DNA of 64,000 nucleotides from the NCBI GenBank assembly GCA_001244265.2, contig CDLV01000018.1, forward strand, positions 1-64,000. Direction: 5' to 3'. Origin of the DNA: Microbotryum violaceum. Its lineage: Eukaryota. Shown in pieces: positions 388-3,300 of the stretch. Position 1 is the first letter of the stretch, and each line of letters begins with the position of its first letter. Made by a program: the position numbers and the translations under genes. Below the pieces are notes generated by a model that saw only the letters and a list, made by a program, of their open reading frames with translations, had not been told where the DNA came from and did no database searches.

Positions 388-3300
388 ATGGACACGTCGT
401 CGCCCCTAACGACGGGTGCCCACCCAACGATCCCCCCGAACAGCTCGCCGCACTTACGTCGCTGCTGTCGGGTCTCACCACTGCCACATCCGCCACGTCG
501 TCCGGCACCTCTCGCCCCGCCTTTCCCAAGCACGCACGCTTGGATGGGCCCAAGACGTTTGCGAGTTGGACACGCCAGCTTCGCCTCTGCCTCGCGCGAC
601 GACATCCGCTCATACGTCCTCGACGGGATTGTGCCCGCCGACTGGACACCTTCGCACCGCTCTGCCCGCGATGTCGTGGCACGTGAGCTCCTAGCGAACT
701 CGATCGACTCAGCCGACGTCTCGCAGTCCTCGACCAAATCCCTACCGCCGACCTCCACAGCGCCCAAAATGTACTCGACGCTGAAATTGCGGTATGCTCC
801 TGACGACGCCACTCGCACGCTCGAGCTCTTCTCCCGACTGTGGAGCTTCCGGCCCATGCCTGGCACCGTTGGCGAATTCGACGGCTGGATCATGGAGTTC
901 AAAGCTATTGCGCAAGAAATCATCGATACGAAGACCACGATCAACGATGTTCTCGCCACACTCCTCCTCGCCATCGCTCACACCTCCTCGAGAGTTTCAA
1001 GGCGTCGTTCACCGATGAACAGCGCACTCAACGATCTCTCCCTGCTATCGATTCGCTCGCCGACCGCATGCGTGTTCAACTCCGGTCCACCAACGTCCCC
1101 AGCACCCAATCGGCCCTTCTTGCCTCGTCGTCGTCACGTCCTACACGTCCCAAGTGTCCGCCTGTCGCAGCCCTTCGCACCGTGTGGCGGAGGCCCTGTG
1201 AGAGACGACACACCCGCCGCCAGACCCTGTCGCTCCTGCAAGCAGAATCACTGGTCTTTCGACTGCAAAAAGCTCTCGGACCACAAAAGGCTCGCGGACA
1301 CAGAAGGCGAACGCGACTCGACCGCCGACTCGCAACACCATGTCGGATGTATCGCCACCGGTCTTCTCGCTCGTCGCCGCCAGCTTCGCACCAACTCTTT
1401 CGTCGTTGACTCGGGGGCCACCTCGCACATGGTCTCGGACAAGTCGCTGTTCACGACCTATCGCCACATCGCTCCCACAAAGATTGGAGGCATTGCAGGG
1501 GCATCAACGCCATCGAACGGGAAACATTGCCTTCGTTGCCGCCTCGGGCCATCCGATCACGCTCACTGGCGTGCTGCACACTCCGCGCCTGTTCGTCAAT
1601 CTCCTCTCGTCTCTCGACTTTGCGACACCGACGACGTCCGTGTTGCCTTCACGAAACACGGCATTGACATCACCAAAGACGGCAACAACATCGCTGAAGG
1701 CACGAGGCTCGACGAGGGACTCTACTTGCTGGACGCTGATCATTCCAAATGTCAGCATCTTGCTCTCCTCTCTCGTTCACAGTCTTCCGTGCCCTGCTGA
1801 CTCTCCACCGCTGCCTCGGCCATCTCGCACCGTCGTCCATACAGAAGATGGTTGCCGCTGGTTTGCTGGAGGGTCTCGGGCCGGATATAGTGACGAAGAG
1901 GTAGAGAAGTTTGTCTGCAATGCTTGCCTTAGTGCCAAGGGCCATCGTCTTCCTTTCCCCGATTCGGATTCGCACTCATCCGAGAGACTCGGCCTGGTAC
2001 ACAGCGATGTGCTTTCCCTCCCGGAGCGTTCCTTGACTGGCAAACGATACCTGGTCACGTTCCTCGACGACTACTCGCGCAAACTGTGGGCCTACGCAAT
2101 CGGACATAAAAGCGAAGTCTTCAGTGTGTTCAAGACTTGGCTTGCCGAGGTCGAGCTCGAGACAGGTGCAACACTGAAGGTCCTCCGAACTGACAATGGT
2201 GGCGAGTATTGCTCGAGAGCATTCACGGAGTTCTGCAAGGTGCGAGGTACGCGTCGACAATACTCTATCCCTCGCACGCCTCAACAAAACGGTCGGGCGG
2301 AGCGGGTCAATCGTTCCATTGTTGAAGGTATTCTTGCCCTTCTGGCGGACGCCCATCTACCCAAGACATTCTGGGAGGAGGCTGCGGCTTACTTCGTTTA
2401 CTGCAAGAACCTGGTTCAACACTCGGCTCTCGACAAGGCAACACCGAACTCGGTCTGGCAGGGCGGACGCACTACAGCCTCCGCGCTTCACCCGTTCGGC
2501 TGTGCGGCTTGGCTCACGGTCGCGCCCGAACTTCGCTCTAAACTCGACCCGAAAGCGGTTCGCGTTCTGTTCACCGGCTACGACTTGGCTTCCAAAGCCT
2601 TCCGCTTCTACGACACTACAACAAAGAAGGTCACCCTGGGCAGAAATGCCACCTTCCTCGACACCGAATTCCCCGGGTTAAGTGGCGACTCTGCCGATCC
2701 AGACGATGACACGCACTTCGCCAGCGCTCCCTTCGCCGACCCTCAAACCACCGTCAAGTCATGGACCCCACTAGTAAGGTCGGCGCACATGGACGTCTCA
2801 TCCCCTCTTGATGATTCTTCCATGAGCGCCGTTGACGTGGCCCCAGGGTACACTGGCGGATCCTTACTTAATTCCACAGATGCCGAATCGCCCGCGTCAC
2901 CGTCGCCTGCGCCGTCCTCGTCACTGTCTCCTGAGCCGGCCTCGTCCCCTTCGGCTGCACCATCGTTCGCGCCCTCACCGTCGTTGGCTGCATCGTCGTC
3001 ACCTTCGGCCTTACCCACTGAATCTGAATACTCCGCCGATCCTCTTGACCTCATCGGATCACAGCCCCAGGCTCCCCTCGACCCAATGGACACCCCACTC
3101 CCAGACTTCAGCACGTACCGCGAGCCCGCATCGGCTGAGGAGTCGCCCGACGAACTCGACCTCATTGGACGCCACTCTCGCGACGAGTCCCCGGACGAAA
3201 TCGATTTCCTCACTCGCCATCACCGCGCGTTCATTGCGACTGACGACGACAACTCTGACACCGAGGCCATCGAACCTGTCAAATCCATTACGAGCGACCC

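Follow-up and report, generated by a model that had tools for sequence, protein, structure and literature searches.

Why do two diverged families of retrotransposons carry, within a hypervariable linker, a block of sequence that is identical almost letter for letter? The question arises in the first 64,000 nt of the forward strand of contig CDLV01000018.1 from the anther-smut fungus Microbotryum violaceum (GenBank assembly GCA_001244265.2), the stretch that we analyzed as a whole and call the window, which contains a cluster of degenerate Ty1/Copia elements of two families, A and B. Five of these elements carry a block of ~120 nt in the linker between integrase (IN) and reverse transcriptase (RT), which an initial annotation had described as an ultraconserved RNA three-way junction that doubles as a frameshifting intron. 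The answer that we favor, with a confidence that is about even, is a genuine in-frame intron in the integrase C-terminal linker, which is mostly retained and whose sequence reflects both constraint and exchange between families.

The block is built like a short U2-type intron and lies in phase 0 relative to the integrase frame. In A1, the family A element that serves here as the reference, the putative intron occupies 2774..2879 of the plus strand (106 nt), with the donor GTAAGG at 2774-2779, a branch-like ACTTAAT at 2866-2872, and the acceptor CACAG at 2875-2879. The last 12 nt of the upstream exon (2762..2773, plus strand; codons W/R-T-P-L) are conserved along with it in the alignments, and the TPL motif is kept in all lineages examined by alignments and protein junctions. 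The other four copies lie at 9205..9310 (B2, plus strand, 106 nt), 16878..16982 (B3, plus strand, 105 nt, with one base absent from the loop of the hairpin P2 described below), 45390..45495 (B5, plus strand, 106 nt, with three private substitutions, all in unpaired columns), and 19981..20086 (A4, minus strand, 106 nt). All five copies were confirmed where the initial annotation had placed them, and within the 64-kb window the block is present only in these Copia copies. In each of the five, GTAAGG directly follows the T-P-L codons in phase 0 and the block ends in (C/T)ACAG, giving GT..AG ends and a U2-type donor match in every case, as judged against the general consensus GTRNGT and not against one drawn from the host's own genes; the (A/G)CTTAAT motif is likewise present as described. 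The block starts 33 codons past the SH3-like domain of integrase, after residue 478 of the IN-RT frame, and opens a Ser/Pro-rich linker of about 240 residues.

Retained, the block reads in frame without a stop in all five copies, with LDDS(S/A) at its middle and (S/T)LLNST at its end; removed, it leads into the Arg-rich start of the next frame in both families. Both parts of this earlier claim hold, but the new frame is long only in family A: it is open for 271 codons in A1 (2880..3695, plus strand) and 211 in A4, vs. 26-45 in the three B copies, and we accordingly rejected the long post-splice open reading frame (ORF) of family A as a second protein. In family A, the first codon past the acceptor is an ATG (ACAG|ATGCC) at 2880.

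Comparison of the copies supports the assignment of the block as a nucleotide-level island. Identity among the five is 92-100% over ~120 nt, and a 123-column alignment contains 11 variable columns, with a mean column identity of 98%. Between A and B, identity in 100-nt sliding windows is 0.92-0.96 over the block vs. 0.21-0.54 in the adjoining linker, and outside the block it does not exceed 0.87 anywhere in the element, the best-conserved reverse transcriptase part included. A1 and B2 differ at 2 of 119 positions in the block vs. 511 of 1,022 in ~1-kb flanks (Fisher test, 4e-30). Within families, the corresponding counts are 4/119 vs. 156/988 for A1 and A4 (p = 5e-5) and 3/120 vs. 177/1,028 for B3 and B5 (p = 2e-6), so that within-family divergence is about fivefold lower in the block than in its flanks. 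These results bear out the near-invariance of the block in otherwise diverged elements, and the same is true of the conservation claimed for third codon positions: where A1 and B2 encode the same residue, 35 of 36 codons are identical in the block vs. 76 of 161 (47%) in 240 upstream codons (Fisher test, 3e-9), and for A1 and B5 the figures are 32 of 35 vs. 24 of 42 (p = 8e-4). The edges of the island coincide with those of the intron, lying 12 nt before the donor and 2-3 nt past the acceptor. We infer from this pattern that the intron is under some nucleotide-level constraint.

Synonymous identity of this kind is not predicted by constraint on the protein, as would be expected if the block were conserved as a functional integrase-tail motif (a protease site, targeting motif, or degron). 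Such a motif would fit a retained block that is always in frame and free of stops, its presence in 49 junction matches among stored public proteins (below), and a peptide whose first half is 60-67% conserved in Microbotryum intermedium, where the linker is otherwise 30-55% conserved. However, between family A and M. intermedium the peptide diverges more than integrase does, and together with the 35 of 36 identical synonymous-capable codons this makes a protein-level explanation most improbable.

To look for the splice junction itself, we compared four public sequencing runs (X4, X15, X17, and X19) with the interior of A1. None of the four is on record as RNA; the RNA status of X17 is a guess ("RNA?"), and its organism code differs from those of the best-matching DNA runs. 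In one X17 contig (record 11; 360 nt, depth 14.7), position 2773 is followed directly by 2880, so that exactly 106 nt with GT..AG ends are absent; of the 13 joints listed, no other has GT..AG ends. The short side of this joint measures 28 nt (flagged as weak), is collinear, and lies immediately next to the donor; a 28-nt start before the junction would be the length expected where spliced and unspliced paths branch in a 31-mer graph. If X17 were DNA, the contig would come from a copy that lacks the intron, and such a copy would itself point to a transcript that had once been spliced and then reverse transcribed. At a depth of 14.7, the junction contig accounts for about 15-20% of the depth summed for each of the two bins over the block (74-98), which is only a hint that the short, spliced form is the minority. 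In X19 there is no cover over the block, and for X4 and X15 no 2773/2880 joint is listed, contigs of this kind showing presence and not absence. The junction predicted by the initial annotation has thus been seen exactly, in one contig of a run only guessed to be RNA; its further suggestion, that upstream donors might use the same acceptor, was not borne out, as the 13 listed joints include none from an upstream or gag-proximal donor to 2880. Anatomy and one exact junction together give the intron reading support that is direct but thin.

Two other features of X17 were noted. A joint from 1272 to 2156, considered as a gag-proximal splice, was rejected: it skips 883 nt with CT..AG ends and three extra letters, and has no GT donor. 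The summed contig depth falls from 120-210 to 5-33 over the integrase-coding positions 1732-2643 and rises again from 2644; the drop could reflect diverged copies in that organism or a shorter RNA form. Contig depth measures such differences poorly.

Public gene models provide a second view of the junction, with little weight since they are gene predictions. Among 261 stored public proteins we found 116 junction-like matches, 49 of which retain the block. Another 59 diverge straight after TPL and form a mixed set, in which in-frame introns of differing acceptors predominate and a few matches do not represent the junction; in 7, the 2880 acceptor is combined with a donor shifted 5 nt downstream, and a single prediction (P0163, from Microbotryum saponariae) uses the exact 106-nt intron. 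We set aside models with an intron at this donor as evidence of splicing, because their acceptors are many, differing, and in frame, for which the simplest reading is a predictor bypassing broken frames. No protein of 60-193 aa that reads the post-splice frame was found; among longer proteins, three M. saponariae gene models appear to read part of it, and these add no independent transcript evidence.

Whether the identity of the A and B blocks was inherited or exchanged can be judged from homologues in other species. The closest proteins all come from Microbotryum (M. silenes-dioicae, M. saponariae, and M. intermedium, among the best 120 of 130 matches), and the block peptide is nearly unchanged in 42 of 122 stored proteins. 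Pattern scans for the block gave no matches in metagenome contigs or in viral contigs, and a protein-guided metagenome scan gave 290 pattern matches, none of which was confirmed. The term "ultraconserved" does not extend outside one Microbotryum clade, as the block of M. intermedium is only about 58-62% identical at the protein level. In the A-like family of that species ("Mint"), the block reads VRTAQMDVSSHSDDSILSTADVSSWTCKSLPNSTD (P0033) and shares 21 of 36 residues with A, a level that does not exceed that of the neighboring linker; in a second M. intermedium family, C, it reads VRSVQMDVLSTLDNSALSTADTCKSTCTPLPIHTD (P0129). The end codons V-R (GUAAGG in the window copies) and T-D (ACAG|AU) are kept in four lineages, both M. 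intermedium families included, and the first half of the block persists in all four, in a linker that is otherwise unalignable.

The flanking domains conflict with this distribution. In the Gag-protease (PR)-IN part, Mint is 81-86% identical to A vs. 75-77% for B; in the RT part, the values are 79-91% for Mint vs. 81-88% for B, and A groups with Mint with a support of 90. A tree that joins A and B has p-AU (approximately unbiased test) values of 0.034 for the integrase part and 0.065 for the RT part. Mint is nearer to A but has a diverged block; the virtually identical block of A and B is thus a derived state that Mint lacks. In the trees of proteins P0004-P0262, family A is basal for the IN part, and family B is basal for the RT part, with A joining the M. 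intermedium family; this difference in branching suggests older recombination between families across the linker. Direct mosaics occur in M. saponariae, where P0010 and many relatives are 94-100% B-like up to the block, then 92-100% A-like for about 100 alignment columns, and then B-like again, and where P/S and S/T variants of the block are common to both families. Taken together, the mosaic elements, the shared variants, and the tree conflict show that co-resident families exchange sequence at the block, and exchange is the likeliest reason for the letter-perfect identity of A and B, loops included.

If exchange is at work, the block might be a functionless tract, left by recombination or gene conversion as a piece of sequence that co-resident Copia families came to share recently. 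The GT..AG ends and the fold would then be coincidental, and the X17 joint would stem from a deletion in the genome or from assembly. The B/A mosaic junction at the block, the conflict between the block pattern and the distances and trees of the flanking domains, and the variants common to both families within a species all fit such a tract, as do loop bases that are identical beyond the need of selection on structure. TCG/CGA sites are likewise 5-9 times scarcer in the block than in its flanks, TCG/CGA being presumably the target of hypermutation resembling repeat-induced point mutation (RIP) in Microbotryum (a trinucleotide that the passages of the Microbotryum papers do not name). A functionless tract does not explain, on the other hand, why its edges coincide with splice sites on both sides, why the exact predicted junction is the only GT..AG joint among 13, why M. 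intermedium retains the codons at donor and acceptor as well as the first half of the block, why both families show an approximately fivefold deficit of divergence, or why the fold lies in the top 0.6% of windows (below), and we consider it unlikely. Exchange alone is insufficient, given an island that ends at splice sites, end codons and a first half that persist, and two U-A pairs inferred in family C. The near-identity therefore probably reflects constraint plus exchange between families, not simple vertical ultraconservation. Of the refutations that the initial annotation had allowed for, identity arising from gene conversion or exchange applies in part, as seen in the M. saponariae mosaic and the diverged Mint block.

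The predicted RNA fold was examined as a possible source of the constraint. The minimum-free-energy fold computed for A1 is the three-way junction that had been proposed, with helices P1, P2, and P3 (-43.7 kcal/mol, z = -3.15, matched by 2 of 200 shuffled sequences, vs. z = -1.73 for the antisense strand), and four of the five copies adopt the same minimum-energy fold, B5 folding differently. Among 885 overlapping 107-nt windows of A1, adjusted for GC content, the block ranks fifth (top 0.6%). The three-way junction is therefore a good thermodynamic prediction. The only locus that ranks above it, 1779-1890 near the protease/integrase border, has the most stable fold predicted for the A1 interior (-46 kcal/mol for 107 nt, rank 1 of 885). 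Predicted helix P1 (plus strand) pairs 2773-2779 (A|GUAAGG, containing the donor) with 2862-2868 (CCUUACU), which overlaps the branch-like ACUUAAU; predicted hairpin P2 (plus strand) pairs 2781-2802 with 2810-2831 through 17 base pairs and internal loops, and predicted hairpin P3 (plus strand) pairs 2841-2846 with 2853-2859 through 6. All pairs of P2 and P3 are invariant in the window, and in P1 6 of 7 are, the seventh changing from UA to UG in A4, so that 29 of 30 pairs are invariant across the five copies. Variable columns within the structure are unpaired in 5 of 6 cases and give a G-U pair in the sixth (p about 0.03, for 60 paired of 96 columns), in agreement with the earlier statement that differences fall in loops or keep pairing. 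In family C, the substitutions A to V with A to T and S to L with D to N would convert pairs 23-67 and 38-52 of P2 from C-G to U-A; although derived from protein, this assignment is independent of codon choice because second and first codon positions are involved, and the chance that 8 random changed columns would hit at least two pairs on both sides is 0.023. Rfam contains no match to the 64 kb at gathering score, so that the proposed scan yielded no family, and a single chance-level match (E = 0.56) covers 2838-2950 of the opposite strand. With no Rfam match and no core motifs by eye, a hammerhead-like or other known ribozyme was dropped from consideration. Evidence for a conserved fold is both suggestive and mixed.

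In its strongest form, the structural reading would have purifying selection acting on nearly every base of a structure-gated splicing switch, with the identity of A and B arising from selection alone. Synonymous-site identity, the fold statistics, variable columns that avoid stems, the two inferred compensatory pairs of family C, and the exact junction contig are all consistent with such a switch. It is difficult to reconcile, however, with the M. intermedium elements, which are nearer to A than B is and yet have a diverged block with broken pairs, with loops and internal loops as invariant as stems, with the lack of covariation in the window, and with direct evidence of exchange at the block itself, and we find it quite unlikely. 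The structure could instead serve as a cis-acting RNA element apart from splicing, in packaging or dimerization, in export, or as a hot spot for RT pausing and template switching, its sharing between families leading to co-packaging and recombination. The stronger fold of the sense strand (z = -3.15 vs. -1.73), the recombination junction at the block, and, as a weak point, short exposed palindromes such as GUAC in the P3 loop would fit this role. Left unexplained by it are the junction contig and an island that ends exactly at GT and AG; Rfam offers no match, and the known cis elements of Ty1 lie at the ends of its RNA. Such an element therefore seems very unlikely.

We return to the favored reading, a mostly retained intron shaped by constraint and exchange, against which several observations weigh. 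Among the five window copies, none of the 30 pairs changes on both sides, so that covariation is lacking in the window; judged from protein, both M. intermedium families have lost pair 29-61 and Mint has also lost pair 23-67, and the fold is accordingly preserved unevenly. The (A/G)CTTAAT motif, 8-14 nt before the AG, fits yUnAy and not CTRAY, the fungal branch consensus, which lies 10-40 nt before the acceptor. The junction comes from a single contig with a 28-nt short side, in a run whose RNA nature is guessed, and gene models that use the donor show only the predictor's liking for it. The tree that joins A and B is weakly rejected, which leaves room for vertical descent with strong clade-specific constraint, and the scarcity of TCG/CGA sites could explain part of the low within-family decay without selection. 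Finally, we know of no established use for a truncated Gag-PR-IN product, the known Copia splices yielding Gag only. RIP-like hypermutation has been described in Microbotryum, where Copia-like elements are abundant and expressed, in passages of two papers that contain nothing on a Copia intron (PMC4469406, PMC2020487).

We propose that the block is a short spliceosomal intron inside the integrase C-terminal linker of single-ORF Microbotryum Ty1/Copia elements. The full-length RNA, which would serve as both genomic RNA and polyprotein mRNA, would retain the intron and translate it, while a minority of transcripts would lose it. Removal of a 3n+1 length would shift the frame, giving a product that stops after integrase with a short basic tail and has no RT or RNase H. 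Pairing of the donor with the U1-like CCUUACU, which overlaps the branch region, would plausibly keep splicing inefficient. Because the block is the only patch of homology in the hypervariable linker, co-resident families would recombine there and homogenize it, perhaps when RT switches templates between co-packaged RNAs, or through gene conversion.

How does this proposal relate to known systems? A Copia element with a single ORF has to tune how much of each protein it makes, and every known solution operates at the Gag/Pol border. Splicing to a second mRNA is established, in the relevant passages of PMC5580714, for Drosophila copia, barley BARE1, and Arabidopsis EVD. BARE1 is similar in that a short intron in a single-ORF Copia element shifts the frame and truncates the polyprotein upon removal, while the unspliced RNA encodes all products; it differs in that its intron lies just downstream of GAG and favors Gag, whereas the Microbotryum intron lies after integrase and would give Gag-PR-IN, and in that the BARE1 passages mention neither conservation across families nor a stable fold (PMC5580714). 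The copia 2-kb RNA and the shGAG RNA of EVD likewise arise by partial splicing of the genomic transcript, full-length RNA requiring retention (PMC5580714), but the copia intron spans POL and that of EVD is centered on the protease and coupled to premature polyadenylation, and both introns yield Gag only and are long for their hosts. The position expected for Copia splicing that produces excess Gag, at or just after GAG/PR, is not that of the Microbotryum donor, which lies past integrase. If true, a cut between IN and RT by splicing would be a different control point and, as far as our literature search shows, the first such case in a fungus; the search, to which supplementary files were external, found no IN-RT intron of a fungal Copia element.

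Related behavior is known outside Copia. In Ogre, a Ty3/gypsy element of legumes, an intron in pol is spliced from part of the transcripts, and splicing restores the ORF. The Microbotryum block would resemble it as a partially spliced intron inside the pol region, but with the opposite outcome, since retention keeps the ORF here and splicing breaks it. Retroviruses have hairpin-associated recombination hot spots and dimer-linkage sites, structured parts of the genomic RNA where co-packaged genomes recombine. A structured recombination patch of this kind would fit the M. saponariae mosaic, although the retroviral elements are not introns, and neither co-packaging nor pausing is evident for the Microbotryum block. 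A third comparison is offered by fungal introner-like elements, which are near-identical, stably folded spliceosomal introns at several genome sites, as described in PMC3609843. Those elements, however, occur in hundreds of copies, lie in unrelated host genes, and are non-coding, whereas the block is in frame and occupies one homologous Copia site in the copies of the window.

Whatever its function, the block illustrates, cleanly and in a natural setting, how diverged transposon families can evolve in concert at one patch of homology, and it is relevant to the frequency of recombination between co-resident retroelements. It cautions, too, that "ultraconserved" islands in repeats can stem from exchange rather than from constraint. 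As a long shot, the intron itself may be mobile between families: an excised structured intron, or a template switch confined to it, would enter the genomic RNA of another family in the same host as a copy, which that element's own reverse transcription would fix, and one optimized "retention-prone" intron would in this way sweep all Copia families of a host, either as a structure-gated switch that sets RT/RNase H against Gag-PR-IN or as the source of a basic-tailed integrase isoform.

The elements that carry the block fit the Ty1/Copia type, with long terminal repeats (LTRs), the order PR-IN-RT, and a reverse transcriptase of the RVT_2 type. A1 (family A) extends over 4..5285 on the plus strand, with LTRs at 4-363 and 4896-5285 that are 89.8% alike, both assigned by self-BLAST; A4, of the same family, lies at about 22809-19377 on the minus strand. 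The family B elements occupy about 6944-11139 (B2), about 14599-18933 (B3), and 44833-47453 (B5). On the plus strand of A1, Pfam places the integrase core (rve) at about 1991-2281 (residues 218-314), the SH3-like domain (SH3_retrovirus) at about 2471-2674 (residues 378-445), and RVT_2 at about 3422-3712 (from residue 695); the three share one frame, which runs through the block, and Pol_BBD and a DSG protease motif lie upstream of integrase. A1 is a degenerate copy that departs from most public contigs by several indels of 1 nt, which explain why its Gag-PR and IN-RT parts are in different frames. A dozen such indels are listed for 364-1900, for example behind 1158, 1192, 1222, 1497, 1514, 1608, 1791, and 1877.

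The Copia cluster is a nest of insertions. Nested or inverted fragments occur at 11601-13396 (minus strand), 5279-5605, 6101-6427, and 9586-9864; one of the nested fragments is an A-type 3' part, 97% like A1 and in inverse orientation, and a piece of ~300 nt recurs in inverted orientation, with 99% identity between its copies, one of which lies within B2. Arrays of a 39-nt tandem repeat (CAGGACTTAGGCGCGC...GGCGCA.CGGC.) at 13758-14135, 18868-19245, 47415-47587, and 11106-11350 sit at the 3' ends of family B elements, adjoining A-type LTR pieces, and the public gene model P0109 translates one such array. Finally, 24215-24514 and 30940-31239 are 300-nt direct repeats, 100% identical and 6,725 nt apart, with long minus-strand ORFs between them, an arrangement that resembles a young LTR element that belongs to a different family and whose LTRs are identical.

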